DNA from: Gynuella sp.
GTDB taxonomy: Bacteria; Pseudomonadota; Gammaproteobacteria; Pseudomonadales; Natronospirillaceae
DNA: 32,000 nucleotides
NCBI GenBank assembly: GCA_028282465.1
Contig: JANQHX010000021.1
Location: 2,437-34,436, forward strand
Direction: 5' to 3'
In this document: piece after piece, positions 4,269 through 21,750 of the stretch
How the letters are laid out: each line of letters begins with the position of its first letter
Numbering within the stretch: position 1 is the stretch's first letter
The notes under the pieces: generated by a model
Databases searched by the model: none
Told to the model about the DNA's origin: nothing
Seen by the model: only the letters and a program-made list of their open reading frames with translations
Position numbers and translations under genes: made by a program

Positions 4269-4278
4269 GGAGGTAACC

Positions 4279-5337
4279 GTGAATTCAAAAAATGTTTATC
4301 TGCTAGCTGGCATTGTGGTGGTTTTTGCCATTATTGCTGTCGTCGTAAGTAACATGAATCGAGGAAAAATTGATTCAGAAATCGACAAAGCTGGTGTGTT
4401 AATGCCTGAGTTAACCGCTCAGGTGTCGAAACTAAATAGAATCATATTCACTGAAAAAATTGATGGCGAATTGGTGACTAACACCCTGGTAAAAGAAGAC
4501 GATCAATGGCTGGTCACCACAGCCTTTAATTACCCTGCCAGAGTTCAAATGTTAACTGAATTGATGAACACATTGGCGTTAGCAAAAACAGTGGAACCCA
4601 AAACCGCTAAGCCAGAGTTTTATTATCGACTAGAGGTTAATGAACCCGAAACCACAGAAGAAGATATATCTGGTACTCGCGTTCAAATGTTTGCGGATGA
4701 AGAGCTAGCCTTCGATTTGATTATTGGTAAAACCGTTCTTAACGGTAATGGCCAATATGTTCGCTTCACTCAAGAACCTCAAAGCTGGTTGATGGATCAA
4801 GAAATTAATATTTCAGCGGAAGCACTGGCTCTGCTCAATCGAGTCATAGGTAAAGTCAGATCTGTGGATGTGCAACGCATTGACATTAAGGCTGACGGAA
4901 CACCTATTGTTATAACGAGAAATGACGTCTCGGAAAGCTTCCAGGTTCAAGAGCTTGGCGAGGGGGTTGTTGAATTTCCCTCATTGTTGACTTCAGCCGC
5001 TAATGCACTCAATGATAAACAATACGATCAGGTCATGCCGGTGTCAGACGTTGAACTGCCCGAGTCGTTTTCTACAGTTAACTATCTATTGTTTTCCGGT
5101 GCGAATATTCAGGTGACTGGTTATAAAACTGAAGATGACAAACGTTTGATCACAATATCCGTCACCAACACCAAGCAACCCAGTGATGATGGTTTTGATG
5201 TAACTGCTGGTGAAGTTGCTCGACTAAATGCTCAATGGCAACCTTGGGTGTATGAAGTGAGCAGAACGGTTTTTGAAGAATTCGAAAAAAATCGGGATGA
5301 TTTTGTTAAAGAGCCAGAGACGGCAGAGACTGAATAG
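4279..5337 (+). CDS. DUF4340 domain-containing protein
   Basis: Start placed at GTG 4279 (in frame with listed ORF 4219..5337), preceded by a strong RBS aaggaggt; N-terminal TM; YRLEVNEPETTEEDISGTRVQMFADEELAFDLIIGKTVLNGNGQYVRF typical of DUF4340; same operon as the GldG-like gene. Confidence 0.85.
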   Translation: MNSKNVYLLAGIVVVFAIIAVVVSNMNRGKIDSEIDKAGVLMPELTAQVSKLNRIIFTEKIDGELVTNTLVKEDDQWLVTTAFNYPARVQMLTELMNTLALAKTVEPKTAKPEFYYRLEVNEPETTEEDISGTRVQMFADEELAFDLIIGKTVLNGNGQYVRFTQEPQSWLMDQEINISAEALALLNRVIGKVRSVDVQRIDIKADGTPIVITRNDVSESFQVQELGEGVVEFPSLLTSAANALNDKQYDQVMPVSDVELPESFSTVNYLLFSGANIQVTGYKTEDDKRLITISVTNTKQPSDDGFDVTAGEVARLNAQWQPWVYEVSRTVFEEFEKNRDDFVKEPETAETE

Positions 5338-5402: not shown

Positions 5403-7433
5403 TTAATCCAAGTCTTCACAATCATCTATGCCTGCAATAAGGGTGGCAGGCAATGCTCCACGAATACCTTCAACGTCTTCACAATTCAAACCAGTACCAG
5501 AAGCTTTTAACAATTTCAGTTGAGTTAACGACTCAATAGGAGTCAGATCAGCTGAAACATTGGATGACTCTATATCCAATTCTTCCAGACGATTCAGACC
5601 AGTTAAATCATCTAGGTTATTAATAGTTAGATGATTGAGCTTTAAGACTTGCAGCTGACTGAATTGACGAATAAAACTCAAATCAGAAACTGGTGTAGAT
5701 AAAATATCCAAGTATTTAATATTGGTTAATGTTTCCATTACAGAAGCGTCAACAAAGTCATAGCTCACATTCCAAATACTTAAAGATTCCAATTGCGAAA
5801 GACCCCTTAGTGGCTCTGGGCTTTCTATGCCGATAAATTCCAAATTCAGCGTTTGCAATTCAGCCATGTCTTTTAAACTTGAAGCATCTATTTTCCGTGA
5901 GTTAGAAAAACCATAAGCATTTGGTCTTAATGTTAAAGATCCTACTTGGTCCATATCTGCGAGAAAACCTAGACCTGTATAGGTACCAGTGTCATTCATG
6001 GCATAGGTTAATTCCAGGATATTTAAGCTGTCTAACTTTGGTAAGGCATTTTTAAGCCACTCTTCTTCATGAAACTCTATCACGAGTTTTTCTAAGTGAT
6101 CTTTCATGCCTTCAAGTGTTGAGGCGCTATTTTGGCTCAACTTAAAAGCATATAAGTCCAACAGAGTTAGGTTTTTTAGCCCCGACAGTGGCGAAATATC
6201 AAGTTCAGTGCTGCTAAAACCTCCATTTGTATAAACCAGCGAGATCAGTTCACTCATGTTAGCCAGATGGCTAAGATCCATCGGGGCTTCTAAATATTCT
6301 AAATCCAAAAATCTCATCTTGGTAAGCCCAGCTAAATTTACCAATGCTTGATCAGTGGTATTGCTTCCTAGCTTATTTAATTCAAGTGATTCCAATTCTG
6401 TTAGTGAACGCAGTGGAATTAGGGCGTCATCTAACAGCTCGTTTACTCCAAGGTTATTCTCGCTCAACGACAGTGACTCAAGCTGAGTCATGGAGGTTAA
6501 AGGAGTAATATCCTGAATTTGATTTCTTGATAACCATAAAGAACTTAGGTGAGTTAATCCGCCTATACCAGATAAATCATGAATTAAATTATCACTGGCT
6601 GATAGACTCGTCAGATTTGAGAATGCCAATAATGAATCAAGAGATTCAAATTGGTTTTGGGAAATATTAATTATCTGTAAAGATACTTGAGAGTCTTCAA
6701 GCTGGATTTCGGATATCTGGTTATTACTGATATCAAGCAATTTCAGGCTAGATAACCCAGGTAGGTTAACTGCAGGCCCTAATTCATTGCTATCTAGTTC
6801 AAGACTTTCCAATGCTGAAAGACCTGATAATCCTGTTACACCTTCAATATCGTTATCGCTGAGATACAGTGATGTTAGTTTAGAGTTACTTTCAAAAGAT
6901 GGCAGAGTTTCAATACGGTTGCTTTCAGCATAAAGGGTTTCTAGCTCTGGCTTATTTCTTAATGAGGCGATGCTTTTCAATTTGTTTTGCGCGAGATCAA
7001 CGATTGTAAGTTGTGAAAGATTCTCTAACGCATCGATAGACGTTACTGCATTGCCATATAGATGTAATTCTTTCAGCTGGGTCAGTTCAGCCAAAGGGGA
7101 TAAGTCTGTGACGGTATTAAGCGGGTCAACTTGATCTTCAAAAATATAGTTGAGATGGTTGTTCATCATAAGGTGTTCTAAATTCACAAATACTTCAATT
7201 CCTGAAATAGTTTTCACCCCTTTTTGTCGACAACGAATTTCGGTGACATCTTCAATGCTAGACCAGCCTTTCGATGCAGCGGTTGAAGAAATACACTGTT
7301 TAAACGCGTCATCTGGTATGTCTAGTTCTGAAATAAATTCAGGCGCTTGAGGAGTATTTGAATCATTTGACTCGTTGTTACAACCCATTAGGGTAACAAC
7401 TAATATCAGGGGAAGAATGGATCTAAATTTCAC
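5403..7433 (-). CDS. Leucine-rich repeat (internalin-type) lipoprotein
   Basis: Signal peptide with lipobox (ILVVTLMGC) and many ~21-22 aa LRRs (e.g. LENLSQLTIVDLAQNKLKSIASLRNKPELETLYAESNRIETLP). Confidence 0.9.
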   Translation of the reverse strand: MKFRSILPLILVVTLMGCNNESNDSNTPQAPEFISELDIPDDAFKQCISSTAASKGWSSIEDVTEIRCRQKGVKTISGIEVFVNLEHLMMNNHLNYIFEDQVDPLNTVTDLSPLAELTQLKELHLYGNAVTSIDALENLSQLTIVDLAQNKLKSIASLRNKPELETLYAESNRIETLPSFESNSKLTSLYLSDNDIEGVTGLSGLSALESLELDSNELGPAVNLPGLSSLKLLDISNNQISEIQLEDSQVSLQIINISQNQFESLDSLLAFSNLTSLSASDNLIHDLSGIGGLTHLSSLWLSRNQIQDITPLTSMTQLESLSLSENNLGVNELLDDALIPLRSLTELESLELNKLGSNTTDQALVNLAGLTKMRFLDLEYLEAPMDLSHLANMSELISLVYTNGGFSSTELDISPLSGLKNLTLLDLYAFKLSQNSASTLEGMKDHLEKLVIEFHEEEWLKNALPKLDSLNILELTYAMNDTGTYTGLGFLADMDQVGSLTLRPNAYGFSNSRKIDASSLKDMAELQTLNLEFIGIESPEPLRGLSQLESLSIWNVSYDFVDASVMETLTNIKYLDILSTPVSDLSFIRQFSQLQVLKLNHLTINNLDDLTGLNRLEELDIESSNVSADLTPIESLTQLKLLKASGTGLNCEDVEGIRGALPATLIAGIDDCEDLD

Positions 7434-8701: not shown

Positions 8702-8866
8702 GGGCCTGTTAATACTAATTGCCTCTTTGCTGTTGAGCTTACTAATCCCTCATTCGTCGTTCGTCGTTGCATCTTTTTATATAGCTCGTTACACCACACT
8801 CGCTACGCCTTGTTTGGCTCAAAAAATAGCCGACGGCAGCGTGAAACAATTCGTGCTAACAGGCCC
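8702..8866. repeat. Candidate MITE-like element with terminal inverted repeats
   Basis: Left end GGGCCTGTTAATACTAATTGCCTC; reverse complement of the right end GGGCCTGTTAGCACGAATTGTTTC; 19 of 24 positions match, with the outer 10 perfect. Non-coding. No target-site duplication seen. Confidence 0.45.
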
Positions 8867-8886
8867 TAGGCTGCTAACCTGAATTC

Positions 8887-11091
8887 ATGTTAAAAAAAAT
8901 TCTGCGTAATCATCAAGCGGTTGTACTTGGGTTACTATTTACTGCCTTAACCTGTTGGTGGCAGTTGCATAATGACCCCCGCGAGCCGTCATTTCTAAAC
9001 CGTCTGGATTACATCCTCTACGACTGGCGGCTTAACTCCACTGGCTTTGCCAACAAACACCCTGACCACAATATTCTTATTGTAGACATAGACGAACGCA
9101 GTCTTAAGGTAGAAGGGCAGTGGCCCTGGGCCAGAACCAAGGTTGCAAAGCTGGTGCAGAAACTCTCAGAGCAAGGGGCCATTGTAGTCTCCTTCGACGT
9201 ACTGTTTTCTGAGCCAGAGCAGCATCCCTTGGAATTTATCTCTAATCTGGCTGAAGCCGAACCAGAGCTGTTAGCTCAATTAGAACAGTTTCGACAACAA
9301 TCAGATGGCGACCAACTGCTGGCACAAGCCTTTCAGCAAATGGACGTAGTACTAAGCTATTTACTCAGAGAAGAGCCAAACACAGTGGGTGCCCTGGGTC
9401 CCATTGTGGAAGAAATGACGGCAGAGCTCTCCAGCCGGAGCATTCTTCTCAAGGCTAATGGCTACACCGGCAATATTCCATTACTGGCCGACAGCGCTAT
9501 TTCCAGCGGCTTTTTTAACCCCACCCCCGACCCAGATGGGGTGATTCGCAGCGTGCCTTTGGTGTGGCGAATAGGTGATAAGGTGTATCCGTCACTAGCG
9601 CTGGCAACTGCCATGACCTATCTGTTTCAGGATGAAATCCATATAAAAAGAGTGGCGGTCGGCGACTTGGATTTTGTCGAAGGCATTCAATTTACCAAAA
9701 AGCTTATTAAAACCGACTCTCAAGCCAGGGTGATTGTGCCCTACATAGGCCCCAGAGATTCCTACACCTATGTGTCGGCCACCGATGTCTTAAATGACCA
9801 GGTGGATCTCTCTATTATGGAAAACGCCGTGGTAATGGTGGGCACCACAGCAGTGGGGTTATTCGATCTGAGAACCACACCGGTGGGCACTGAATACCCA
9901 GGAGTAGAAGTGCACGCCAATGTAGTGAATGCTCTTATGTCTGGTGATTTTCCCTATGCCCCAGATTGGAGTGACGCTGCAGTATTTGTTTTTCTATTAC
10001 TCATCGGCATTATTTTCTCTTTTGTGTTGCCAAAGTTTGGCCCAGTGGTGTTATTTTTATTTTCAGTGTTTGTACTGGTGATTTTAATCATCACCAATTT
10101 TTGGCTCTGGCAAGAACATAAACTGGCCTTGCCGCTAGCCAGCAGTTTAATTCTGTTATTTACCCTCAGCGTCATCAATTTAGTCGAAGGTTTTTGGCGT
10201 TCTACCCAAAGCCGAAGAGAAGTCACCGAAATGTTTGGCCAGTACGTGCCCCGAGCTCATATTGACCATATGCTAGAAGCGCCAGATGACTATGGTTTTG
10301 ACGGCGAAAGTAAAGAGCTCACAGTGTTGTTTTCTGACATTAGAAGCTTCACCACCATTTCTGAAAAGCTGTCGGCCATTGAATTAAAATCCTTATTAAA
10401 TCGCTACTTCACTCCCATTACCGAAATTATTTTTAATAACCGAGGCACCATCGACAAATACGTCGGCGACATGGTGATGGCATTTTGGGGCGCACCTTTA
10501 GACGATGAAAATCATGCCGAAAACGCTCTAAAAGCCACCATGGAAATGCTCGAAAAAATAGAAGCCTTAAAACCCGAATTTGTGGCAGACGGCTTACCAG
10601 AAGTGAATGTGGGTATTGGTTTAAATACCGGCCCCATGAACGTAGGCGATATGGGTTCAAACTTTCGCCGGGCTTATACCGTGTTAGGTGACGCTGTTAA
10701 TCTTGGTTCAAGATTAGAAAGCCTAACTAAATTTTACGGCGTGCAATGTTTAGTAGGGCCAGACACCAAAGACCTATGCCCCAATTATGCATTTCGCTTT
10801 GTAGATAAAATAATAGTGAAAGGCAAAGACGAACCCATTCAAGCCTGGGAGCCTTTGTGCCTAGAAAAAGATTTATCAGAAGATTGGCAAACCGAACTTA
10901 AACAATTTGAACAAGCCTATGAAAACTATGCTAACCAAAACTGGCAAGATGCTATTGAGCAACTGACACAATTAACAACCACTAGCCCAAGGCCATTTTT
11001 GTATCAAGTTTATTTAGACCGCATTGAAAGTTTAAAAGCACAAGACCTGCCTGAAGATTGGGATGGCACTTTTAGGCATACTTCGAAATAA
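8887..11091 (+). CDS. CHASE2-domain class III adenylate/guanylate cyclase
   Basis: CHASE2-like extracytoplasmic region (NILIVDIDERSLKVEGQWPWARTKVAKLV), three TM segments, then the cyclase catalytic domain (ELTVLFSDIRSFTTISEKL...DKYVGDMVMAFWGAP...YTVLGDAVNLGSRLESLTKFYG). Confidence 0.93.
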   Translation: MLKKILRNHQAVVLGLLFTALTCWWQLHNDPREPSFLNRLDYILYDWRLNSTGFANKHPDHNILIVDIDERSLKVEGQWPWARTKVAKLVQKLSEQGAIVVSFDVLFSEPEQHPLEFISNLAEAEPELLAQLEQFRQQSDGDQLLAQAFQQMDVVLSYLLREEPNTVGALGPIVEEMTAELSSRSILLKANGYTGNIPLLADSAISSGFFNPTPDPDGVIRSVPLVWRIGDKVYPSLALATAMTYLFQDEIHIKRVAVGDLDFVEGIQFTKKLIKTDSQARVIVPYIGPRDSYTYVSATDVLNDQVDLSIMENAVVMVGTTAVGLFDLRTTPVGTEYPGVEVHANVVNALMSGDFPYAPDWSDAAVFVFLLLIGIIFSFVLPKFGPVVLFLFSVFVLVILIITNFWLWQEHKLALPLASSLILLFTLSVINLVEGFWRSTQSRREVTEMFGQYVPRAHIDHMLEAPDDYGFDGESKELTVLFSDIRSFTTISEKLSAIELKSLLNRYFTPITEIIFNNRGTIDKYVGDMVMAFWGAPLDDENHAENALKATMEMLEKIEALKPEFVADGLPEVNVGIGLNTGPMNVGDMGSNFRRAYTVLGDAVNLGSRLESLTKFYGVQCLVGPDTKDLCPNYAFRFVDKIIVKGKDEPIQAWEPLCLEKDLSEDWQTELKQFEQAYENYANQNWQDAIEQLTQLTTTSPRPFLYQVYLDRIESLKAQDLPEDWDGTFRHTSK

Positions 11092-11099
11092 ATAGTTCT

Positions 11100-14039
11100 T
11101 TAAGATTCATAGCGTGTTTCTATCAGTTTTCCTTTTAGATTGCTCAAATAGACTTGGTAGTATGACTCCATAAGTTCAGCTAGTTTTTCATATTCGTCAT
11201 TGCGTCCAAGTTGATAGCCCGCAGCAAAGTTTACAAAGTCCAGGTCTTTTAATTGCTGAACCATCACCTGATCAAGAAAATCAAACCATCCTTTGATTGA
11301 AGCCGATACCTCACAAGAGAAAGCATCGAACATTTCTTTGGCAGAATTAAATCCTATTCGGACATAATTGTTTCCAATTATTTGAAAAACGCCCATGCTT
11401 GTTGCTTGGTATGCCGCTTCTTCGTTAAGGCTACGGGCGAATTCAAATACCTCCCATTCTTTTCGTTGTTGACCATGAAAGTACTTCCAGTCTTCCTCAA
11501 CAGTTTTTCTCCATTTATGGCCTAACCAAACCTTGCTTGAGTCGTATTGAAAATGTTGGTTATATAAATCAGTGTTTGTTTTACCCCAATATTTCCAAAA
11601 TAAGTGATTTTCAAAACGTATTTTTAAACGATCTGAGTTGGTTTTATCTAGCTCTTCATCGTTAGATATCGAGCACAAAACAGCGAGGATGCAGCCTAAA
11701 TCAATTGCTGTTTTATTGCTGATTTGGAATATGAGTTTGCCGTATTTATCCCAGATAGAAGTCAGCTTGTTTATTTTATCCTTGTCCACAAAATCAGATT
11801 TTATTTCAGCAGGTTTAACCCGACTATTTTTGCCGATAGTAACTGTTAGTTTTCTTGGCCGACCCTGTTCATCCACGTTGTTTTCATCCCATTCCGCAAT
11901 GGAATCTTCATTGCCAAGGTTTTCCCAGATTTCCTTAAACATCATTAACGGGAAAATTCTGTCGTTTGTGTCTTTGCCCCAGAGCCACTTATACAATCGT
12001 GGGTCGGCTGGGTATTGGTTGCCGGGTTGGCCGGTTGAGTTGCTTCTTGCGAAGCCGGGTTGGTTTTCTGAGCAAATTATTTGGGTGTGGTATGCAGCCT
12101 CATTTTCAACCCACTCTTCAACAATGGCCGGGCCTTCCAAATCCTTGTAAAAAGTTTTTAAACACTTGCCAGTGGCTAGATCCCAGAGCTTGAGAGTGTT
12201 ATCAGTGCTTCCGGAAATGAATCGCTGGTCATCCACCATCGCCGCGCTGGTAACCGGGCCTCCATGGCCCACAAAGGTTTGTAAACAATTCCCGGTGGCC
12301 AGATCCCAGAGCTTGAGGGTGCGATCATCGCTTGCGGAAATGGCCCCCTGGTCATCCACCACCGCCACGCTGTTGATCCCGCTCCCATGGCCCACAAAGG
12401 TTTGTAAACACTGCCCAGAGGCCAGATCCCAGAATTTAAGAGTGTTATCATAGCTTCCGGAAATGGCCCGCTGGTCGCCCACCACCGCCACGCTGGTGAC
12501 CGATAGTTGATGGCCCTCAAAGGTTTGTAAACATTGAGCGGAGGCCTGATCCCAGAGCTTGAGGGTGTTATCCCAGCTGGCGGAAATAACCCGCTGGTCA
12601 TCCACCACCGCCAGACTGTTGACCGAGTGTTGATGGCCCTCAAAGGTTTGTAAGCACTGTCCGGAGGCCAGATCCCAGAGCTTGAACGTGTGATCATCGC
12701 TGGCGGAAATGACCCGCCGGTTATCCACCGCCACGCTGCTGACCCAGTCTTCATGGCCCTCAAAGGTTTTTAAACACTGTCCGGAGGCCAGCTCGAAGAG
12801 CTTGAGTGTTCTGTCATAACTGCTGGAAATAACCCGTTGGTGATCCACCACTACCACGCTGCTGACCCAGTTTTCATGGCCCTCAAAGGTTTGTAAGCAC
12901 TGTCCGGAGGCCAGATCCCAGAGCTTGAGGGTGTGATCACCACTGGCGGAAATGACCCGCTGGTCATCCACCACCGCCACGTTGGTGACCCAGTTTTCAT
13001 CCTCAAAGGTTTGTAAGCACTGTCCGGAAGCCAGATCCCAGAGCTTGAGAGTCTTATCACGGCTTGTGGAAATGACCCGCTGGTTATCTACCACCGCCAT
13101 GCTAGTGACCGAGCCTTGATGGCCCTCAAAGGTTTGTAAACACTGCCGGGAGGCCAGATCCCAGAGCTTGAGGTTAGCACGGCTTGCGGAAATGACCCGC
13201 TGGTCATCTACCACCGCCACGCTTGTAACCAGACCTCCATGGCCCTTAAAGGTTTGTAAACAATTGCCGGTGGCCAGATCCCAGAGCTTAAGGGTCTTAT
13301 CACGGCTTGCGGAAATGACCCGCTGGTCATCCACCACCGCCACGTTGGTGACTGGGCTTTTATGGCCCTCAAAGGTTTGTAAGCACTGTCCGGAGGCCAG
13401 CTCCCAGAGCGTGAGGGTCTTATCACGGCTTGCGGAAATGACCCGCTGGTCATCCACCACCGCCACGCTGCTGACCCAGTTTTCATCCTCAAAGGTTTGT
13501 AAGCACTGTCCGGATGCCAGATCCCATATCTTTAGAGTGTTATCATCGCTTCCGGAAATGACCCGCTGGTCATCCACCACCGCCACGCTGGTGACCGAGT
13601 CTCGATGGCCCTCAAAGGTTTGTAAACACTGCCGGGAGGCGAGATCCCAGAGCTTGAGGGTGTAATCATCGCTGGCGGAAATGACCTTCTGGTGATCCAC
13701 CACAGCTACGCTGGTGATCGAGGCTTGATGGCCAAGCCTAGTTAGACTTGGCAGCGATGTTTTTAGGTTAGCTGGGGTGTGCCATGGCACTCGCGTTTTT
13801 GATGTTGTGGAGTCACTTTCATTAAACCGAGCAAAATAATGCTCGGAGTAGGCCAGCGGTGTGCCCTCAAGGTTTGCCGGTGTTAAATCAAGCCCGCGAA
13901 TATAAGAACCGCTTAGATCCAGCTTGGAATAGTCCAATGTCTCAGCTCCAACAGTTGCTAAGCCGATAGGCTGAGCAGATTTGTATTCCGGGTTTATTTT
14001 TTTAACTAAAAGAGAAAGCGCCTGTGCGGTTTTATCCAT
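11100..14039 (-). CDS. WD40 beta-propeller protein with C-terminal N-acetylmuramidase-like (PF11860-type) domain, probably catalytically inactive
   Basis: 13 tandem WD40 repeats (aa 104-636, e.g. HRDSVTSVAVVDDQRVISGSDDNTLKIWDLASGQCLQTFED). The C-terminus (IRFENHLFWKYWGKTNTDLYNQHFQYDSSKVWLGHKWRKTVEEDWKYFHGQQRKEWEVFEFARSL...SMGVFQIIG) is homologous to the neighbouring SH3-muramidase. Confidence 0.88.
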   Translation of the reverse strand: MDKTAQALSLLVKKINPEYKSAQPIGLATVGAETLDYSKLDLSGSYIRGLDLTPANLEGTPLAYSEHYFARFNESDSTTSKTRVPWHTPANLKTSLPSLTRLGHQASITSVAVVDHQKVISASDDYTLKLWDLASRQCLQTFEGHRDSVTSVAVVDDQRVISGSDDNTLKIWDLASGQCLQTFEDENWVSSVAVVDDQRVISASRDKTLTLWELASGQCLQTFEGHKSPVTNVAVVDDQRVISASRDKTLKLWDLATGNCLQTFKGHGGLVTSVAVVDDQRVISASRANLKLWDLASRQCLQTFEGHQGSVTSMAVVDNQRVISTSRDKTLKLWDLASGQCLQTFEDENWVTNVAVVDDQRVISASGDHTLKLWDLASGQCLQTFEGHENWVSSVVVVDHQRVISSSYDRTLKLFELASGQCLKTFEGHEDWVSSVAVDNRRVISASDDHTFKLWDLASGQCLQTFEGHQHSVNSLAVVDDQRVISASWDNTLKLWDQASAQCLQTFEGHQLSVTSVAVVGDQRAISGSYDNTLKFWDLASGQCLQTFVGHGSGINSVAVVDDQGAISASDDRTLKLWDLATGNCLQTFVGHGGPVTSAAMVDDQRFISGSTDNTLKLWDLATGKCLKTFYKDLEGPAIVEEWVENEAAYHTQIICSENQPGFARSNSTGQPGNQYPADPRLYKWLWGKDTNDRIFPLMMFKEIWENLGNEDSIAEWDENNVDEQGRPRKLTVTIGKNSRVKPAEIKSDFVDKDKINKLTSIWDKYGKLIFQISNKTAIDLGCILAVLCSISNDEELDKTNSDRLKIRFENHLFWKYWGKTNTDLYNQHFQYDSSKVWLGHKWRKTVEEDWKYFHGQQRKEWEVFEFARSLNEEAAYQATSMGVFQIIGNNYVRIGFNSAKEMFDAFSCEVSASIKGWFDFLDQVMVQQLKDLDFVNFAAGYQLGRNDEYEKLAELMESYYQVYLSNLKGKLIETRYES
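12132..13730 (-). repeat. Tandem array of 13 WD40-coding repeat units, ~123-bp period (120-135 bp)
   Basis: Recurrent near-identical DNA such as 'ccagagcttgagggt', 'tggtcatccaccaccgccac' and 'ggccctcaaaggtttgtaa'; units of 40, 41 or (last) 45 codons. Confidence 0.95.
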
Positions 14040-15981
14040 GGTTACTATCCACTAATTGCTCTCCTAAATTTTGTATTCGCTCTAACACCCTGGTTGTTTT
14101 ATAAAATTCTGTCAGTTGAATGGCTGAAGTAATATCGGCTAAGTCTTCTAGCCATTCAATATCGGTAACCAGGGTTTCATTTGAAGTCATATATTCTTCA
14201 GACCTAAATAGCTCTAGCCATTCATGAAAAACTGGGTCTGGTAACTTTTTATGGCGCCATTCTTGTCGCCTAATAAAATCTCTTCTTGAACTTATGTCTG
14301 GCAGCATAAAACCACTTTGTAGCTCCCCCAGATCAACATTCGAAATAGTTTCTAAGTGGTCTTCATTAATGATTTGAACAGGAGCTTTATGCTTTTGAGT
14401 TTCAATAGCTTGATTTTTTAAATACAGGGCCTCGAATTGGTTTAAAGCTTCATCATCAGTAATAGGGTTAGATTTAATTTCATTACCGTGAAAGGCTGCA
14501 AGTGGGTCTATGCTGTAGCGGTTTCGTTTGGATTCACGGAGTAAGTTTTTAAACTGATGCCAAGCCAGTTGATATTCACTGACGGTTATTGGGCTGGTTG
14601 GATTCTGAGTGCCTTCCAAAGCCTCTTTATTACTTTTATCCACCTCTTCAACGATTGTCTGGGCCTCGAATCTATAACTCATTTTGCATTCAAACAACCA
14701 GTTGTATACCACTTCATTAGACCTGAGCAGGCGATATAAGCTGGAGAATTGCTGTTCTAAAATAGTAATTCTGGCTAGATGTTCTAAGTGCTGGTCATGC
14801 TGGTTAATAAATTCTTTGCCGCCTTCTAGGTTTTGAATGGTATCTCGCTTGAGTTGTATGGCTTCTGCGGCTCGAATAAGTTTTCTAGGTACAGGTGGAA
14901 TGGCTTGGTTAAATAAATTCAATAAGGGTAGATTTAATTTAGTTTCTGCATGTTTATCCTCTGGTTGTTCGTCTTGGCGATCATCTATTTGACTAGCTTT
15001 TTGGGCATCTTCTGCTTTTTCTTCAACTACAAAAAGGCTTGGGTAATGTTCAATTAAATAAGCTTGGGTTTGGTTTTGTGACCACCTAGGCAAATGAATA
15101 GGAATATGAACAATCTTTTCTAAATACTCTGCGCCGGTAATAGGTGGGCTGATATTGGAGTCTCGGTCTTTTTCTAAAAAGTAGTCTTTGTATCTATGGT
15201 TAATGCCTCGTTCAACCACTTCGTCGTCTACGGCTAGCACAAAGGCAAAATTATTAATATTTAAAAATAGTTTGATGGATTCAAGCATTTGTACTGCGTT
15301 ATCTGGCAGGCATCTGTCCAAGTCATCTACAAGTACAATAATTCTAATTTTGAGTTTATCGTCGTCAGGTGATTGGGTGAGTTGTTCAAGTGATTCAAAG
15401 GTACCGTAATACATGGACTCCATCTTTTTAGTCGCTTCATTTTTCTTAGCGTCAGAAGCTGCCGCTGATTCTAGGCTGTCTTTGCCACTGAATTTGATGA
15501 CACCAAAATCAAAACTCAAACCAGTTGCGACAGATCTCGTTAAATCAGCAATGGTTTCACCGGTTTTTATTAGCAAGGATTTAAGTTGGTCAGTAACAGC
15601 CCTTGTTAATGTCAAGGCATGGCTTTCGATCTTGCTTTGATACTTTTCTAACTGGTTTTCAATGGTTTTTAACAGAGGAATGATTAAAAAGTCTTCCTGC
15701 TCGTATTTCCAAGGGGAGAAAAACACAGGAATATTGATATGCTTTATCGAGTTGTCTTCAGTATTTGAGTCTTGCCAGATTAAATTTTCAGATTTGGAGT
15801 AGTGTTTTTCAATCTGTCTTAGGTGCCAGGTTTTACCTATGCCCCATTCACCATAAACAGACACCACCAATGCTTCACCACTGGCTTTGTGGGGAAAACT
15901 GGTATTAATAACATCACAAATGTTACTGACGATTTCGCTAGAAACATCACTGGAAACGTTAGCGGTATCCGAAACGGGCAT
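14032..15981 (-). CDS. KAP-family P-loop NTPase
   Basis: Walker A VVSVYGEWGIGKTWHL and KAP-type Walker B IRIIVLVDDLDRCLPDNAVQMLESIKLFLNINNFAFVLAVDDEVVERGI; EKIVHIPIHLP motif. The stop codon overlaps the downstream ATG (ATGGATAA). Confidence 0.93.
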   Translation of the reverse strand: MPVSDTANVSSDVSSEIVSNICDVINTSFPHKASGEALVVSVYGEWGIGKTWHLRQIEKHYSKSENLIWQDSNTEDNSIKHINIPVFFSPWKYEQEDFLIIPLLKTIENQLEKYQSKIESHALTLTRAVTDQLKSLLIKTGETIADLTRSVATGLSFDFGVIKFSGKDSLESAAASDAKKNEATKKMESMYYGTFESLEQLTQSPDDDKLKIRIIVLVDDLDRCLPDNAVQMLESIKLFLNINNFAFVLAVDDEVVERGINHRYKDYFLEKDRDSNISPPITGAEYLEKIVHIPIHLPRWSQNQTQAYLIEHYPSLFVVEEKAEDAQKASQIDDRQDEQPEDKHAETKLNLPLLNLFNQAIPPVPRKLIRAAEAIQLKRDTIQNLEGGKEFINQHDQHLEHLARITILEQQFSSLYRLLRSNEVVYNWLFECKMSYRFEAQTIVEEVDKSNKEALEGTQNPTSPITVSEYQLAWHQFKNLLRESKRNRYSIDPLAAFHGNEIKSNPITDDEALNQFEALYLKNQAIETQKHKAPVQIINEDHLETISNVDLGELQSGFMLPDISSRRDFIRRQEWRHKKLPDPVFHEWLELFRSEEYMTSNETLVTDIEWLEDLADITSAIQLTEFYKTTRVLERIQNLGEQLVDSNHG

Positions 15982-16195
15982 CTTTAAATGAGTCCATCCT
16001 TGAGACTACATGAGTATTCAATTGCTGGCGTCTAAATTCAATGGTTTCAAACCAATAAAGTCATGAGTTTTTCATTGATCCAAAACTAATTTGGTTGATG
16101 TTTGCTGAGCTAGTATGGGTATCTGCGCATTATCCGTTAGCAGTCAAAAAATAAGCCTGCTAAATTGCTATGACTGAAAGAAAATACAAGGAAAT

Positions 16196-17542
16196 GTGTT
16201 CATGTTTGCCAAGGTAACCGCGTCTGCGCTCAATGTACGATCTGTGCCCAAGGCCTCAGGGAAAATTTTGGGTGTCCTTCACAAGGATCAAGTCATCCGC
16301 ATAGAAGGTGAGGAGGGCAGTTGGAGCCAATTAGCTTATATGGGTCAAACTGGATTTGTGGCAACAGAGTATTTGACGTTTGAATTTGAAACGGATCAAT
16401 TAATGGGCAAAGTGACTGCCTCTTCACTGAATGTCAGGCCCGACCCTTCAACCTCGAATGAGCCTATTACAAAACTGGATAATGGGGTAGAGGTGAGCGT
16501 TTTAAAGCAGGTGGAGGATTGGTACGAAATAGCACTGCCGGATTCCACAGGTTTTGTGTCAGCCAAGTTCATTGACGTCAGTATCCCTGACCAACCCAGC
16601 TTGATTTTGGTGAATGCTAGTAATTTAAATGTTCGTTCTGGGCCTTCAACTGACCATGAAATTATCGGTTCAGTTGACCAGGGCACTCAATTAATCAAAG
16701 TGTCAGACAATAATGATTGGATTGAAGTTCGGTTTAATGATGAACCTGGGTATGTGCATTCTGATTTTGTAAAACCATTTAGTGGCACTGCCAAGAAACC
16801 AAGGGCAAGACGTACCCGTCTAATCAATTCAACAAGCGCCTCATCGACTGACAGCGCATTGGAACCAGACACTCAGCTGTTAATTGAAGGGGACAAAACC
16901 CAGAAAAAGGTGGCTAGAACCTGGAATAGCTTTGGTGGCATTTTACAAAAGCTCAGTTCAGATTTTGGTTTTGAAGCTGCCAGCGCAATAGCTGTGCTTT
17001 GTGTTGAAAGTTCGGGTAAGGGTTTTCAAAAAAGTAATGACAACCGCATGATCATTCGTTTTGAAAACCACAAGTTTGACGGTTATTGGGGTGAACAGAA
17101 TTCAGAATTATTTGATCAGCATTTCAAATACAACAAGAAGGGTAAGAAATGGCTGGGTCATGAGTGGCGAGAAACTACCAACGATGAGTGGAGTCGCTTT
17201 CATGGCAAACAAAGAAAGGAATGGGAGGTGTTTAATTTCGCAAGACACTTAGACAGTGATGCGGCCATGATGTCTATTAGCATGGGAGCTCCCCAGATTA
17301 TGGGTTTTCATTATAAACGACTGAATTACTCATCAGTGGCTGAAATGTTCGATCAGTTTTCCACTGACATGGCGGCGCAAATTGAAGGATTGTTTCGTTT
17401 TCTGGATAAACGAATGATAAAGGCATTAGTGGAAAAAGACTTTGTGGAGTTTGCTCGCTGGTATAATGGTGCTGGACAAAAACAAAAATATGGCGGCTGG
17501 ATTATGGATCATTATCAGGCCTTTAAATCTTTAGCGAATTAA
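16196..17542 (+). CDS. Three SH3b domains + N-acetylmuramidase domain (PF11860-type)
   Basis: Three copies of the SH3b pattern (VTASALNVRSVPKAS...; VTASSLNVRPDPSTS...; VNASNLNVRSGPSTD...), then AIAVLCVESSGKGF...IIRFENHKFDGYWG...SISMGAPQIMG...FARWYNGAG. Start GTG 16196 or ATG 16202. Confidence 0.9.
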   Translation: MFMFAKVTASALNVRSVPKASGKILGVLHKDQVIRIEGEEGSWSQLAYMGQTGFVATEYLTFEFETDQLMGKVTASSLNVRPDPSTSNEPITKLDNGVEVSVLKQVEDWYEIALPDSTGFVSAKFIDVSIPDQPSLILVNASNLNVRSGPSTDHEIIGSVDQGTQLIKVSDNNDWIEVRFNDEPGYVHSDFVKPFSGTAKKPRARRTRLINSTSASSTDSALEPDTQLLIEGDKTQKKVARTWNSFGGILQKLSSDFGFEAASAIAVLCVESSGKGFQKSNDNRMIIRFENHKFDGYWGEQNSELFDQHFKYNKKGKKWLGHEWRETTNDEWSRFHGKQRKEWEVFNFARHLDSDAAMMSISMGAPQIMGFHYKRLNYSSVAEMFDQFSTDMAAQIEGLFRFLDKRMIKALVEKDFVEFARWYNGAGQKQKYGGWIMDHYQAFKSLAN

Positions 17543-17559
17543 TTTTAAAAAGGGTAATC

Positions 17560-18237
17560 ATGAAAACAGTGTTAGTTACTGGTGGCAATCGAGGTATTGG
17601 CAAGGCCATCGTGGTTGGGTTAGCTCAGCAGGGCTATAAGGTGTTGTTGGGGTGTCGTAATTTAAATGCTGGGGAAGATGTCGCCAAAGAAATTCAAGGC
17701 GATATTGTTCCTGTCGCTTTGGATCTGATGGATACATCTGTTTTATTATCTCAAATTGAAGATTTACTAACTCAATTTCCGCAGATTGATATTCTGGTTA
17801 ATAATGCTGGTGTACTTTATGAAGGCGGTGTTGTCACCGGCGACATGGCTGAAATGGCAGAAACCATTCAAGTGAATGTCATGGCGCCCTATATTTTAAC
17901 CAAGGCCTTAGTGCCTGGAATGCAGAATAGAAATTTTGGTCGCATTGTCAATTTGTCTTCCGGCTGGGGATCATTTTCTGAGGGTTTAGCTGGCCCGGCT
18001 TCTTATTCCATTAGTAAAGCGGCCATTAATGGTTTAACTGTTACCCTTGCAAAAGAGTTGTCTGGTGATGTGACTGTGAATTCAATGTGCCCAGGCTGGG
18101 TCCATACTCGCATGGGGGGAGAAGCCGCTCCGCGAACTCCAGAGCAGGGCGCAGAAACTGCTATTTGGTTAGCCTCCCAAGACGCTGGTGGCCCTAATGG
18201 ACAATTCTTTAGAGACAAAACCCCCATCAACTGGTAA
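17560..18237 (+). CDS. SDR-family oxidoreductase
   Basis: TGGNRGIGKAIV NAD(P)-binding motif, LVNNAGVLYEG, catalytic S...YSISKAA. Confidence 0.93.
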   Translation: MKTVLVTGGNRGIGKAIVVGLAQQGYKVLLGCRNLNAGEDVAKEIQGDIVPVALDLMDTSVLLSQIEDLLTQFPQIDILVNNAGVLYEGGVVTGDMAEMAETIQVNVMAPYILTKALVPGMQNRNFGRIVNLSSGWGSFSEGLAGPASYSISKAAINGLTVTLAKELSGDVTVNSMCPGWVHTRMGGEAAPRTPEQGAETAIWLASQDAGGPNGQFFRDKTPINW

Positions 18238-18333
18238 GTCATTTATTGATTCAACTTTTACGTTCGACTGGCTCAGGGTGATTCGTTCTCTTGAGTGAGT
18301 TTTACTGCTTTAAATATTTGAAGGTTAGCTGTT

Positions 18334-19272
18334 TTGAAAAAGATCATTACGATTACATTGAACCCGGCGTTGGATTGCAACGCCACCACAGAACGTATTT
18401 ACGCTGACGGTAAATTACGTTGTGATTCACCAACCTTCGACCCAGGTGGTGGCGGAGTAAATGTCTCCCGTGCTATTAAAAAATTGGGGGGTGATTCTCT
18501 GGCGATTTATCCAAGCGGTGGCTCCACCGGGAAACACTACTCTAATTTATTGTATGCCGAGGGCATCGACACTTTAGTTGTGCCCATCACGGATTGGACT
18601 CGCCAAAACATGACAGTGGTAACCACCACAGATAATCAACAATACCGATTTGTTATGCCGGGCGCGGAATTAAATTCAGATGAGCAACAGGAATTTTTAG
18701 CTGAAATTGAAAATCTGGATGCGGAATACTGTGTCATCAGTGGTAGCTTTCCAGCGGGCACTGAAGACAACTTTTTAAAAGCTCTGTTGAGCCTGTGCAA
18801 AAAGAGAGGATTCAAAATTATTTTTGACAGTTCAGCGGAGTCTTTAATTAAAGCGGTTGAATTGGGTGGATTGTATTTAATTAAACCCAACGGCGCGGAG
18901 TTGGCTGAAATGGCAGGTATGGAAGTAGAAGACCCTGACGATTTAGAAACCCAGGCCAAATCGCTGATTCAACAAGGGAAAGCTGAGGTTGTGATGGTTT
19001 CTTTGGGGCCACAAGGGGCGTTACTGGTTACCAAGGATAAATGCGAACAAATTGTTCCACCTCGTGTTAGAAAAAATAGCACTGTCGGCGCTGGGGATTC
19101 TATGGTGGGTTCTACTGTACTTGCTCTTTCAGAAGGTATGTCGGTTCGTGAAGCTGCTCGCCGCGGTGTAGCTGCTGGTACTGCCGCAACTATGAATCAT
19201 GGCACTGAGCTGTGTAAAAAAGAGGACGTAGATAAAATCTATGCCTGGTTATTGGAGCACTATCCTTTATAG
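18334..19272 (+). CDS. PfkB-family phosphofructokinase (6-phosphofructokinase II/1-phosphofructokinase-like)
   Basis: TLNPALDCNATTERIYADGKLRCDSPTFDPGGGGVNVSRAIKKLGG...VRKNSTVGAGDSMVGSTVLAL; TTG start. Confidence 0.9.
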   Translation: MKKIITITLNPALDCNATTERIYADGKLRCDSPTFDPGGGGVNVSRAIKKLGGDSLAIYPSGGSTGKHYSNLLYAEGIDTLVVPITDWTRQNMTVVTTTDNQQYRFVMPGAELNSDEQQEFLAEIENLDAEYCVISGSFPAGTEDNFLKALLSLCKKRGFKIIFDSSAESLIKAVELGGLYLIKPNGAELAEMAGMEVEDPDDLETQAKSLIQQGKAEVVMVSLGPQGALLVTKDKCEQIVPPRVRKNSTVGAGDSMVGSTVLALSEGMSVREAARRGVAAGTAATMNHGTELCKKEDVDKIYAWLLEHYPL

Positions 19273-19502
19273 GGCAGGGCTAAGTACTCTATAAATCTAA
19301 GCGCTCCTGAAACCTATGTTTATGGTTTTTTAACCCAATTATCATTGCTGCATATATACGGCCCAATGGTACTGCCTGTGGGGTAGGTAACACCGTTATA
19401 TATGCAGTCTGCTTTTACTGGAAATGCAAAGCCAGATAAAATCAGAATAAGTATCCATTTCATTATTAGTAATTTCATAAATTATACCTCCCTATTGTTA
19501 CC

Positions 19503-20015
19503 TCAGGATTTGACAGCGAACATTTGTCCATCAGGTGCCACTGAAACCATCACCAGTTTTATATTTGATTCACTATTTGAGTCCCAGCCCAATAGCAAAG
19601 TATCGTCTTCACTTAATTGAATGTGCTCTTGATTATTTGGGCAGGGGATTACTAGTTTTGCAAATACCTGAACCATTCTTTCTGGTGATTCATTGTCTAC
19701 AACCAATAAATACTTCTGGCCATAGTGCACGCCTTGGCACACGGCGGCTTCGCCTTTAACAAGTGCAACCCCATTTATTTTAACCTGTGACTCAAACTGG
19801 TTAACTGAAGGTCTAATCCAGTTTTCTGTAATGGGTGCTGAAGCCGTTAAAATTGCGAGGGCGAGATTTCCATACATGTAATGTCGGATAGAAAAAAGTA
19901 CCGATGGTTTTGGAGACTTTTTCTGGGTTTCTTGACTTAGTAACTTAAAAGAAAGAAGTGATAATAAGAATACCAAGCCTGGTAATCCTAGTTTTAAGAT
20001 TTCGATAATATCCAT
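19503..20015 (-). CDS. Hypothetical protein with N-terminal TM segments
   Basis: ORF of 170 aa with hydrophobic segments LPGLVFLLSLLSFKLL and YGNLALAILTASAPI; no family recognised. Confidence 0.55.
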   Translation of the reverse strand: MDIIEILKLGLPGLVFLLSLLSFKLLSQETQKKSPKPSVLFSIRHYMYGNLALAILTASAPITENWIRPSVNQFESQVKINGVALVKGEAAVCQGVHYGQKYLLVVDNESPERMVQVFAKLVIPCPNNQEHIQLSEDDTLLLGWDSNSESNIKLVMVSVAPDGQMFAVKS

Positions 20016-20219
20016 GAGTCAGTAACCTCCTTGCTACCTTCTATATTTTATTGAAAATCTAAATTGAATGGCTGTCAAATAAATAATCAGTTATTACTGT
20101 AACTGTGAATTGGATAATGGCTTAAATCATCATTGAGATTTAAATCAAAATATAAATTGTTGAATCGGATTCCCTAAGTTTTTTCCTGTCTTTTTATTTG
20201 GGACTCAAAAAATAAGAAA

Positions 20220-20258
20220 CTCCCTAGTGCTCATTCTTATTATTTAATTTTAGGGGAG
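20220..20258 (-). terminator. Possible terminator of the MotAB/FliG-like operon
   Basis: On the minus strand, CTCCCCTA ... TAGGGAG (one bulge), then a T-rich tract (tttcttatttttt), 17 nt past the stop codon. Confidence 0.45.
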
Positions 20259-20274
20259 GGCTTTAAAGATTTAA

Positions 20275-20952
20275 TTAGTCTCGTCTTACTCGAATCAGTA
20301 TTCGTCGGTTCTGAGTTCTGCGTTCTTCAACAGGAATGGTTTCGTCTGTGACCTTGGGGCGCGAATCAGCATAGCCAGAAGCTTTCATTTGCATTGGGTC
20401 TAAGCCCTGTTCTTGAAAATACTTCACTATGTTTGTGGCGCGATTGGAACTGAGCTCCCAGTTGGAATCGTATTTCTCATTGTGAATGGGAACATCATCT
20501 GTATGACCTTCAATTTCGACAATGTAATAACCTTGAAGATTGTTCGAAACCACTTTCGCTACATCATTCAACAGAGGTAATGCCTGTGGTTGTATATCGG
20601 CACTGCCAGAATCGTAAAGCGGAAAGTTAGTAAACTCCAGTAATACGCCTTTGTCATCAATGGTGACATTTGCAAACTGTTCCAGATCTCGAGTTTCGAT
20701 AACGGATTGCCAACCCGCTTCGATATCTCGCAATGGAGTTTGAACCTTTGTGTTGCTGATGGCTTCAGCTAAGCCTTCTTTTAACGCTTCAATTTTGCCT
20801 TGATTTAAATCTGAGACGCTCATGATCATGACAAAAAAAGCAAGCAACAAAGTGATCACATCGGAATAGGTCACTAACCAACTGTCTTGCTCTCCTTCAC
20901 CCCCTAGCCTTGGCCGACGTCGCTCTGCTCCAGGCCGTGTGCGAAGATTCAT
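20275..20952 (-). CDS. MotB/OmpA-family stator-like protein
   Basis: DSWLVTYSDVITLLLAFFVMIMSVSDLNQGK (MotB TM with proton/ion-coupling Asp) and OmpA-like peptidoglycan-binding motif EGHTDDVPI...NWELSSNRATNIVKYFQEQGL...QNRRILIRV. Confidence 0.93.
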   Translation of the reverse strand: MNLRTRPGAERRRPRLGGEGEQDSWLVTYSDVITLLLAFFVMIMSVSDLNQGKIEALKEGLAEAISNTKVQTPLRDIEAGWQSVIETRDLEQFANVTIDDKGVLLEFTNFPLYDSGSADIQPQALPLLNDVAKVVSNNLQGYYIVEIEGHTDDVPIHNEKYDSNWELSSNRATNIVKYFQEQGLDPMQMKASGYADSRPKVTDETIPVEERRTQNRRILIRVRRD

Positions 20953-21750
20953 TTAAGATTGCTCGCTTGCCATGTCGTAGTAGGCTTTGGGGTTAATTAA
21001 TGCGTTAAGTCGGTCTTGTATGGTGAGGGCGTCGGCCTTTTCCATCATGAATACAAACCCGTCACACCAGAGTTGATGCCGTAAATATTCCCCTTCCATT
21101 TTTTTAAAAATATGAACGGCGGCAGGTCTGAAAATCAACTGAGCCAGCATGACGCCATAGAGAGTGGTGATTAAGGCCAACGCAAGACCTTTGCCTAAGG
21201 CAGTTATGTCCCCATCCATGTTATCTAACATGATGATTAAGCCGATGATAGTACCAACCATACCAAAGGCCGGTGAGTAACTAGCCATGGTGTGTAACAC
21301 TTTTGCCGATTGAGTTCTTCGAGAAAAATCCGCTTCAATGCGGTTAGATATTAAATAGCGAATCTCTTTAGAATCATAGCCCGCAGTTATTTGTTCTAAA
21401 CAATAAGTTAGAAACTCGTTCTTTTTTTCTTTGTTGGTAAGGGAATTTGAAACCGCTGTGAGACCTTGTTGTCGATAGATTTGGCTCCATTCAATAAAAC
21501 GTTTGATGTCTGACCTCAGGGTGCTGTGGTTGTCGCGCTCTTCACTGAAAGTTCGAAAAAGAGCAAAAATAGCGGTGACAAACTCCTTCATGTTGTAACT
21601 AATAATGGTCGCCGCTGCTGTTCCACCCAACACCATAGCAACACTGGTGGGGCTAATAAAAATAATGAAGTTATCGGTATTCGAGGTGATCGCATAAAAG
21701 AATAATGCGATGGCACCTATGATGCCGATGAGTGTGCTAATAAATGTCAT
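20953..21750 (-). CDS. MotA/PomA-family stator-like protein
   Basis: FISTLIGIIGAIALFF; VLHTMASYSPAFGMVGTIIGLIIMLDNM; ALALITTLYGVMLAQLIFRPAA. Confidence 0.93.
   Translation of the reverse strand: MTFISTLIGIIGAIALFFYAITSNTDNFIIFISPTSVAMVLGGTAAATIISYNMKEFVTAIFALFRTFSEERDNHSTLRSDIKRFIEWSQIYRQQGLTAVSNSLTNKEKKNEFLTYCLEQITAGYDSKEIRYLISNRIEADFSRRTQSAKVLHTMASYSPAFGMVGTIIGLIIMLDNMDGDITALGKGLALALITTLYGVMLAQLIFRPAAVHIFKKMEGEYLRHQLWCDGFVFMMEKADALTIQDRLNALINPKAYYDMASEQS

Follow-up and report, generated by a model that had tools for sequence, protein, structure and literature searches.

A coupled KAP NTPase-WD40 gene pair in Gynuella sp. as a candidate split NLR-like conflict module with a predicted inactive endolysin-type domain

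In the RADAR system, the heptameric defence ATPase RdrA docks a separately encoded effector through a helical insertion (PMC9994260). KAP NTPases with uncharacterised C-terminal regions give Walker-B-dependent phage defence, a role shown for EF_KAP, which has transmembrane helices, and for three others (PMC13552941), and KAP NTPases are also found among the NTPases of sensor proteins diversified by diversity-generating retroelements (PMC10907252). Endolysins, in turn, are known as partners of holins, as in the rcc00555-rcc00556 endolysin-holin locus that is needed for lysis and release of the gene transfer agent (GTA) RcGTA (PMC5026251). Here, we describe a locus of Gynuella sp. (assembly GCA_028282465.1, contig JANQHX010000021.1, positions 2,437 to 34,436 of the forward strand) in which a KAP-family NTPase, a WD40-repeat protein carrying an endolysin-type domain and an SH3b endolysin are encoded side by side. 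The whole 32,000-nt stretch that was analysed is called the window, and coordinates given without a locus name refer to it.

The KAP and WD40 genes are co-inherited and translationally coupled, and we predict that the pair they form is probably a conflict system, most likely one directed against phages. An initial annotation of the window had delineated three open reading frames (ORFs), their domains and a 214-bp divergent spacer, all of which were confirmed from the ORF list and Pfam, and had proposed that the three genes together act as a split module resembling nucleotide-binding leucine-rich-repeat (NLR) receptors, or else in cell-wall surveillance or lysis. The three-gene system is not conserved; the two-gene KAP-WD40 pair is the generalisable object. 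The spacer holds no strong sigma-70 match, no sigma-70-like divergent promoter pair and no terminator of note. The genes are arranged as follows.

11100-14039, minus strand: WD40 partner gene (979 aa), with N-module, 13 WD40 repeats, tail and predicted dead endolysin domain
14032-15981, minus strand: KAP-family P-loop NTPase gene (649 aa; Pfam PF07693, full-length homologues, AlphaFold2 model)
14032-14039, minus strand: 8-nt overlap of the KAP stop and the WD40-gene start, ATGGATAA (translational coupling)
15982-16195, no strand: divergent intergenic spacer, 214 bp
16196-17542, plus strand: SH3b×3 and PF11860 endolysin gene (448 aa; start at 16202 according to gene callers; Pfam, PHROGs)

Many KAP proteins carry transmembrane helices in or beside the NTPase domain. 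The KAP protein of the window has no 19-residue Kyte-Doolittle segment at or above 1.6 (maximum 1.36) and is a soluble variant, as is RdrA. It matches the KAP_NTPase family PF07693 (E=9.5e-37, 127.3 bits against a cut-off of 20), and in an alignment of 23 sequences (A2) the Walker A residues G44, E45, W46, G47, G49 and K50 and the Walker B residues D219, D220, L221, D222, R223 and C224 are invariant.

15829-15852, minus strand: Walker A motif GEWGIGKT (aa 44-51), intact
15310-15336, minus strand: Walker B motif VLVDDLDRC (aa 216-224), intact
14035-14949, minus strand: alpha-helical C-terminal lobe of KAP (aa 345-649), subfamily-specific

The C-terminal lobe matches no Pfam family and is conserved to its end, with P362, P365, R366, K367, R370, E373, R417, W610 and Q622 invariant (A2). 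Full-length homologues with similarity running to the C-terminus are numerous (29-46% identity), and tblastn also detected the lobe in 14 of the 15 loci with a downstream WD40 or N-module partner, L013 being the exception. In scans of viral contigs, the KAP subfamily with this lobe was not found, and matches were limited to the N-domain (20-32%). In sister KAP clades, the NTPase is found fused to FGE-sulfatase/CLec or to DUF1566 domains.

Among known structures, the best Protein Data Bank match of the AlphaFold2 model of KAP (predicted local distance difference test, pLDDT, 76.7) is RdrA (Foldseek E=2.5e-6, probability 1.0), with a TM-score of only 0.3-0.38 and an identity of 12-16%; ORC/Cdc6 and plant NLR NB-ARC modules follow. 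As in RADAR, two genes are paired: one for a KAP-like ATPase whose C-terminal lobe is alpha-helical, the other for its separately encoded partner. That partner, however, is a WD40 protein and not an adenosine deaminase, and the sequence similarity to RADAR is confined to the NTPase core. No RdrB or deaminase domain was found in the window, where the gene downstream of KAP is the WD40 gene, and the ring assembly known for RdrA is a prediction for the pair described here. With PifA, EF_KAP and its relatives, and QatA, the protein shares a KAP P-loop NTPase followed by an uncharacterised C-terminal region, but it has no transmembrane helices and does have a dedicated WD40 partner, and the matches cover the NTPase domain only. 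PADLOC matches to QatA, PifA and PDC-S20 reach ~E=1e-21 to 1e-23 within this core. Assignment to QatABCD was rejected (NCBIfam QatA, 107.4 bits against a cut-off of 600), and QatB, the QueC-like QatC and the TatD-like QatD are not adjacent. Membership in RADAR or in PifA/PDC-S20 was likewise rejected or left as generic domain similarity. The module thus contains a genuine KAP-family NTPase of the soluble subtype and is a member of neither the NLR class nor RADAR.

The pairing of the KAP and WD40 genes extends well beyond Gynuella. Wherever enough sequence is available, a WD40 gene lies immediately downstream of KAP, overlapping its stop by 8-11 nt or beginning no more than 30 nt from it, in at least 11 other loci (L002, L004, L005, L007, L008, L009, L010, L014, L016, L017 and L135). 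The tblastn screen lists the pair in L002-L010, L014, L016 and L017, with L135 recognised by direct comparison, and matches to the N-terminal module of the WD40 partner fall directly downstream of KAP in L002-L008, L014 and L017, and in L135 by alignment to the window. The two genes overlap by 8-11 nt in L002, L004 and L005 and are separated by at most 30 nt in L007, L014 and L135. The pair occurs in hosts of ~41% to 65% GC and among unrelated flanking genes, and therefore moves as a unit. Further support comes from P0095, in which KAP and WD40 are fused as one polypeptide, providing Rosetta-stone evidence for the pair. The closest KAP relative, L135 (46% identity), has a different upstream neighbourhood and a partner that starts with the same MDKTAQALSLLVKKINPE; the 1.7 kb of sequence available there holds no endolysin. 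A possible synteny of L135 with the window through their adjacent short-chain dehydrogenase/reductase (SDR) genes was rejected, the two SDRs not being detectably homologous. No account of a KAP NTPase paired with a separate WD40 protein was found in PADLOC 2.0 or in the literature searched.

The three-gene layout behaves differently. Its recurrence in other genomes had been named in the initial annotation as the test of the proposal, and PF11860 is found near none of the 85 related KAP loci (0/85, ±5-8 kb), the closest relative L135 included: tblastn over ±8 kb in 84 related KAP loci detected PF11860-like sequence only on the window's own contig. The combination of the WD40 partner's tail with PF11860 was found nowhere else in 5.8 billion clustered proteins, JGI metagenome contigs or 1.84 billion representatives, the last of these searches being exhaustive for tail plus dead domain. 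A metagenome scan with the same query returned six loci that match in the muramidase part only, at no more than 40% identity except for L095 (a 51-residue fragment, 45%). All five in which the alignment covers the motif retain VES.G (the region is not covered in L095), and none of the six has a WD40 or KAP gene nearby.

Two genes next to the pair in other genomes were recorded as side observations. In L005, the KAP-WD40 pair has a Schlafen/AlbA_2 and HATPase_c_4 gene (6196-7326) ~700 bp upstream; anti-phage activity has been reported for Schlafen proteins of prokaryotes (PMC13552941). In L014, a 481-aa ORF with no Pfam family (11900-13345) begins at the stop codon of the WD40 partner and may be a third component there.

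The WD40 partner is expected to supply the recognition surface of such a pair. Ahead of the endolysin-type domain, it is composed of three parts.

13875-14039, minus strand: N-module (aa 1-55), conserved only among KAP partners (alignment A3 of 10 partners)
12150-13736, minus strand: WD40 array of 13 units of 40-41 aa (123 nt; TRF, 82% nucleotide matches)
11778-12149, minus strand: post-propeller tail (aa 631-754; alignment A4 with six other partners)

The N-module has a consensus of ~55 aa, ALxLLxRKxNP (or ALxLLxKKxNP) ... GxYLRGLDL (A3). A profile of it (A3, ~60 aa) gave a single 68-aa match among 5.8 billion proteins, and this search is uninformative on partner architectures because a query of ~60 aa is too short for significance. 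The tail carries the motif LPADPxLYxWLWF ... W.DD of the partner family, more loosely (Y)PADPxLYxWLW ... W(D/S).., and all other complete partners end after it. Pfam counts 13 WD40 repeats in the window's protein and 11-14 near-identical ones in KAP partners; on five partner proteins it reports WD40-type families only, and the tails match no known family. Within the array, just five of the 41 repeat positions (4, 5, 6, 23 and 25) have an entropy above 1.5 bits, and the others average 0.55. Repeats that are highly conserved internally and have hypervariable surface positions are a hallmark of NLR-type WD40 arrays, as known from work on fungal HNWD and other NLRs. Composition also jumps within the gene, from a GC content of 0.55 and a third-position GC (GC3) of 0.65 in the array to a GC3 of 0.36 in the dead domain, close to the 0.35 of KAP. 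The same trend is seen in L002, the closest relative with data (array 0.63, KAP 0.51, locus 0.45). This shift could result from GC-biased gene conversion among repeats or from horizontal exchange of arrays. An array of extreme internal conservation is seen in the KAP partner of L010 (9977-12445), from a metagenome-assembled genome, where 14 WD40 units are almost letter-perfect copies of a 46-aa unit.

These properties invite comparison with NLR and STAND (signal transduction ATPases with numerous domains) proteins, namely Avs, nSTAND and NACHT or NB-ARC proteins with WD40, tetratricopeptide (TPR) or leucine-rich (LRR) repeats. Both combine an NTPase switch with a superstructure-forming repeat sensor that varies at few, hypervariable positions. 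In the window, by contrast, the NTPase is of the KAP type, switch and sensor are on two genes, and there is no N-terminal effector domain. STAND NOD profiles match the KAP protein below threshold only (nSTAND_NTPase5, 17.1 bits vs 34; AAA_22, 23.3 vs 27). The KAP-WD40 pair may therefore work like an NLR, but with its sensor in a separate gene it is no member of the STAND/NLR class.

In the window, the WD40 protein continues past the tail into a further domain, for which the initial annotation had used the label pseudo-muramidase.

11103-11777, minus strand: PF11860 endolysin-type domain (aa 755-979), predicted to be catalytically dead and added in this lineage only (Pfam E=3.5e-26)
11667-11669, minus strand: codon for Ile791, which replaces the general-acid Glu, so that the VES motif reads SIS (alignment A1)

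In PF11860 enzymes, the general acid corresponds to Glu101 of AP3gp15 and Glu29 of Pae87, and the AP3gp15 E101A variant loses 99.4% of activity (PMC5674055). Work on Pae87, including its E29A variant, identified Glu46 as the second catalytic glutamate and His48 and Tyr174 as lining the cleft (PMC8972805). The acid Glu (VES[SG]G) is kept by the SH3b protein, by each of the 14 further relatives aligned in A1 and by 145 of the 148 closest representatives from the search of 1.84 billion proteins; in the WD40 protein, Ile791 takes its place. The domain is also altered in its G.GF loop and in the C-terminal YNGxGQ motif (A1), while it retains the second Glu (RFENH, aa 808-812) as well as the cleft residues His and Tyr (the latter in YQLG, where the SH3b protein has YNGAG). 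Its AlphaFold2 model is confident (pLDDT 88.9, predicted TM-score 0.84) and matches LysT84, Pae87 and AP3gp15, the three family members of known structure, in Foldseek (7rum, 7q4s/7q4t and 5nm7; probability 1.0, TM 0.64-0.77). Since the acid Glu is lost while the fold is kept, the earlier label is correct, and this C-terminal muramidase domain is predicted to be catalytically dead. In scans of viral contigs, PF11860 is common, and the acid Glu is intact in 18 of 21 viral loci; the motif was not recovered in L097, L103 and L107.

The two muramidase domains of the window are homologous, as had been proposed, with 41% identity over 219 aa (E=3e-55), far beyond chance. The shared motifs listed initially are present, except that the first had been written with one dot too many and reads RFENH.F..YWG. 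All nearest relatives of the dead domain are SH3b-PF11860 proteins (40-48% identity; the window's own SH3b protein is only 42% identical to it), and 92% of 300 bootstraps place its sister inside the SH3b×3 endolysin clade. Clade placement together with low identity indicates that the domain was captured out of the SH3b×3 endolysins, with fast evolution afterwards. Its branch is long, and a long-branch artefact is possible in its placement. A recent local duplication of the neighbouring endolysin was rejected as its source, with the two being sisters in only 7% of the bootstraps. An intact ORF of 225 aa with a confident fold at only 40-48% identity argues for purifying selection on a non-catalytic role and not for neutral decay.

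Divergent from the KAP gene lies the endolysin itself, with the following features.

16211-16780, plus strand: three SH3_3 bacterial cell-wall-binding domains (Pfam E=1.3e-38, three stretches)
16979-17524, plus strand: active-type PF11860 muramidase domain (Pfam E=1.2e-36)
17006-17008, plus strand: codon of the catalytic Glu271
17057-17071, plus strand: RFENH motif

This protein matches PHROGs endolysin families and, with Glu271 present, is predicted to be catalytically intact; its muramidase domain is 54-61% identical to those of other clade members, of which it is a normal one. In three of three relatives, Alteromonas sp. (L086/L087), L088 and L089, a PF11351 GTA_holin_3TM gene follows 9-27 nt downstream of the endolysin. 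In the window, an SDR gene begins 17 bp past the endolysin gene, and tblastn with the three holins found no holin homologue in the 32 kb (best E=1.7). PHROGs shows no other phage-like gene there, and GTA or phage structural genes are absent from the window. No signal peptide or transmembrane segment was detected in any of the three proteins, whose maximal 19-residue hydropathies are 1.51 (WD40), 1.36 (KAP) and 1.18 (endolysin), compared with 1.86 for a holin used as control. Judged by these sequence properties, the whole module, the intact endolysin included, is predicted to be cytoplasmic. What this adds to the initial annotation is that the SH3b-muramidase comes from an endolysin-holin lysis cassette whose holin is absent here, and that export signals are not predicted. 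Housekeeping cell-wall turnover is unlikely because the holin is missing from the cassette and the three proteins have no export signal. The lack of a signal peptide is shared with GTA- or phage-type endolysin-holin cassettes, as expected of a holin-dependent endolysin; the window differs from them in having no adjacent holin, and its relatives are gammaproteobacterial chromosomal cassettes and not Rhodobacterales GTA loci.

The relatives just mentioned are SH3b×3-PF11860 and PF11351 two-gene cassettes in three unrelated chromosomal contexts (L086 6912-8733, L088 8001-9832 and L089 8001-9823), from Alteromonas-like bacteria and with no visible prophage genes nearby. A different arrangement is seen in L091 (6808-12097), where two small multi-transmembrane proteins (117 and 120 aa) of holin-like hydrophobicity come before a PF11860 endolysin with one SH3b domain, and a 1130-aa protein that appears patatin-like (GGGxRS, read by eye) and membrane-spanning comes after it.

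Endolysin-type domains have been joined to NTPase receptors more than once, as indicated by locus L134 and by P0254. In L134, P0200 contains WD40 repeats, a PF11860 domain with its Glu intact and a C-terminal extension, and stands directly after nSTAND1 fragments; these lie in successive frames (L134 8028-13431), and the whole looks like an nSTAND1-transmembrane-WD40-PF11860 ORF broken by two frameshifts. A Peptidase_M23 gene comes after P0200. P0254 is a single protein of 1238 aa with the order nSTAND1, transmembrane helix, SH3b, PF11860 (Glu to Gln) and M23. These proteins resemble the window's in linking an NLR-like NTPase to PF11860, through WD40 repeats in L134 and with the E to Q change in P0254. 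They differ in that the NTPase is nSTAND1, the chain is a single polypeptide with a transmembrane helix, M23 is present in both, and L134 keeps the Glu.

Taken together, the explanation that we regard as the best, and hold tentatively as somewhat short of probable, is a mobile two-gene split NLR-like conflict module to which a lineage-specific, non-catalytic endolysin-derived domain has been added. In the proposed mechanism, the N-module would dock on the alpha-helical C-lobe of KAP, the WD40 propellers would bind an invader-derived ligand via their variable patches, and ligand binding would drive NTP-dependent ring assembly or oligomerisation, as in RdrA. The dead domain would act by binding and not by catalysis, as an additional sensor of ligands derived from peptidoglycan or as an adaptor, and would be no lytic effector; an effector role for a cytoplasmic dead muramidase domain, as initially suggested, is unlikely. 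The divergent intact endolysin would be the most plausible lytic output, or at least represent the source lineage of the dead domain. We find it quite likely that the dead domain is functional and non-catalytic. A functional coupling of the endolysin to the module is plausible but rather less likely than not, and forms the weakest step. The initially proposed split NLR-like module is thus retained as far as the pair is concerned, on account of its conservation and coupling, the intact NTPase, the patchy variation of the array, the P0095 fusion and the RdrA match, but the SH3b-muramidase is not retained as a part of it. The gain of the dead endolysin domain and the neighbouring endolysin that lacks a holin elaborate on the pair in this one case only.

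Several observations weigh against this explanation. The canonical pair has no recognisable effector domain, and its PADLOC and NCBIfam matches are generic KAP-domain ones that fall far below family cut-offs. In the neighbourhoods examined, flanks of the pairs are mostly ordinary metabolic or signalling genes and form no defence islands, the exceptions being the Schlafen-like gene of L005 and, in L010, an NYN gene. Both the dead-domain fusion and the endolysin adjacency are singletons, the dead domain seldom emerges as sister to the neighbouring endolysin (7% of 300 bootstraps), and it is not evident how a cytoplasmic endolysin with no holin would reach the wall. The nSTAND1 parallels differ from the window in that their transmembrane helix probably puts the wall-active part beyond the cytoplasm.

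The genes might instead be adjacent but independent, with a self-sufficient KAP-WD40 module, an endolysin left over from GTA or prophage lysis, and a dead domain that is a tolerated passenger captured by recombination with a local endolysin copy; their adjacency would then reflect evolutionary origin and not function. Endolysin is absent near all 85 other KAP loci screened (84 plus L135), the tail is where other partners stop, the fusion occurs once among 1.84 billion representatives, and the dead domain has lost its catalytic residue and sits on a long branch. A neutral passenger of 225 aa at ~45% identity, however, should gather stops or frameshifts and lose fold confidence, whereas this domain is an intact ORF, is modelled at a pLDDT of 88.9 and retains the second Glu along with the cleft's His and Tyr; moreover, it is no recent copy of its neighbour, and the intact endolysin has been maintained in the absence of a holin. 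We consider independence the main rival explanation, though a rather unlikely one. The kept cleft residues, apart from the acid catalyst, would also suit cell-wall surveillance, in which the dead domain would be a putative binder of muropeptides or precursors raised by wall attack (phage tail lysins, antibiotics or competitors) and would signal to KAP, as an analogue of NOD1/NOD2. In crystals, a GlcNAc-MurNAc-L-Ala-D-Glu fragment is bound by PF11860 domains (PMC8972805); by sequence, every component is cytoplasmic, and E to Q or I variants recur on NTPases (P0254). Yet the muropeptide site of Pae87 is poorly conserved in PF11860 enzymes that have their wall-binding domain apart (PMC8972805), the SH3b lineage from which the dead domain stems is of just this kind, and the canonical family works without the dead domain. 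We give surveillance little credence. A reading that extends the mechanism above to the neighbouring gene is similarly improbable: the dead domain would be an integrated sensor or decoy, for cytoplasmic muropeptides, peptidoglycan precursors or an endolysin-targeting phage factor, that acts through the KAP switch on holin-independent release or activation of the endolysin.

The missing holin has suggested a further possibility, namely regulated autolysis, in which the KAP and WD40-dead-domain proteins would replace the holin as controller of the endolysin for programmed release of particles, vesicles or DNA. The endolysin's partner in relatives is a GTA-type holin, RcGTA is released via such a two-gene locus (PMC5026251), and in the window the holin is missing and the KAP operon stands divergently adjacent. 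But the three proteins have no membrane segment to let the endolysin out, the KAP-WD40 family occurs elsewhere with no endolysin, and the window lacks GTA and phage structural genes, which makes regulated autolysis very improbable. Finally, the two halves of the WD40 gene might have been misjoined in assembly through the repeat array. An independent Logan assembly is identical to 8822-12605 and 13611-25981 of the window (100% identity) and breaks inside the array, so that the mid-array stretch 12606-13610 is supported by a single assembly only, and the exact 979-aa protein is not on record. However, the Logan assembly reproduces both unique junctions, between N-module and array and between tail and dead domain, at 100%, which indicates that they are real; the repeats on both sides of the break share one consensus, and the tail joined to the dead domain is the family-specific tail of KAP partners. 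An artefact is thus exceedingly improbable, and we return to the mobile pair with its added domain as the preferred explanation.

The neighbours of KAP in the window are the WD40 protein, a CHASE2 cyclase, the endolysin, the SDR and a PfkB kinase. The CHASE2 class III nucleotidyl cyclase (8887-11091, plus strand) is convergent with the WD40 gene across an 8-bp gap. Its cyclase domain matches PADLOC models of the Pycsar cyclase PycC (E=2.5e-29), probably through generic cyclase homology, and no cyclic-nucleotide-binding effector was seen near it. Another repeat-type potential sensor, a 676-aa LRR protein (5403-7433, minus strand), lies 3.7 kb from the module; its LRRs fall within ~aa 39-378, and its C-terminal ~300 residues match no Pfam family. 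Four genes at 781-5337 (plus strand) encode an ABC ATPase, an ABC-2 permease, an ABC_transp_aux/DUF7088 protein and a DUF4340 protein, and are unrelated to the pair. On the other side, a tightly coupled five-gene operon (20275-25543, minus strand) encodes MotA/ExbB-like and MotB/OmpA-like proteins, a 366-aa protein, a TPR protein and a 646-aa protein with C-terminal FliG_M/FliG_C. Assignment of this operon to Zorya was rejected by architecture: the similarity of MotB to ZorB is generic (E=3e-22), that to ZorA2 is weak (E=2e-4), the MotA-like protein has only 265 aa, and there are no ZorC or ZorD matches.

If confirmed, the KAP-WD40 pair would add to bacterial immunity a widespread split NLR-like architecture, in which the switch and a hypervariable propeller sensor are on separate, coupled genes. 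The Gynuella locus would then also be a natural test case of how a receptor gains a domain, with a phage or GTA lysis enzyme inactivated and joined to a sensor. At least two independent nSTAND1-endolysin fusions suggest that NTPase receptors have recruited endolysin-derived domains recurrently; the recruited domains could be effectors where they lie outside the membrane and binding modules where they are dead and cytoplasmic. Should the sensor or decoy reading prove true, the locus would couple suicidal lysis to a bacterial equivalent of peptidoglycan sensing of the NOD1/NOD2 type, and the nSTAND1-PF11860 fusions would mark a wider undescribed class of NTPase receptors built round endolysin-derived domains.

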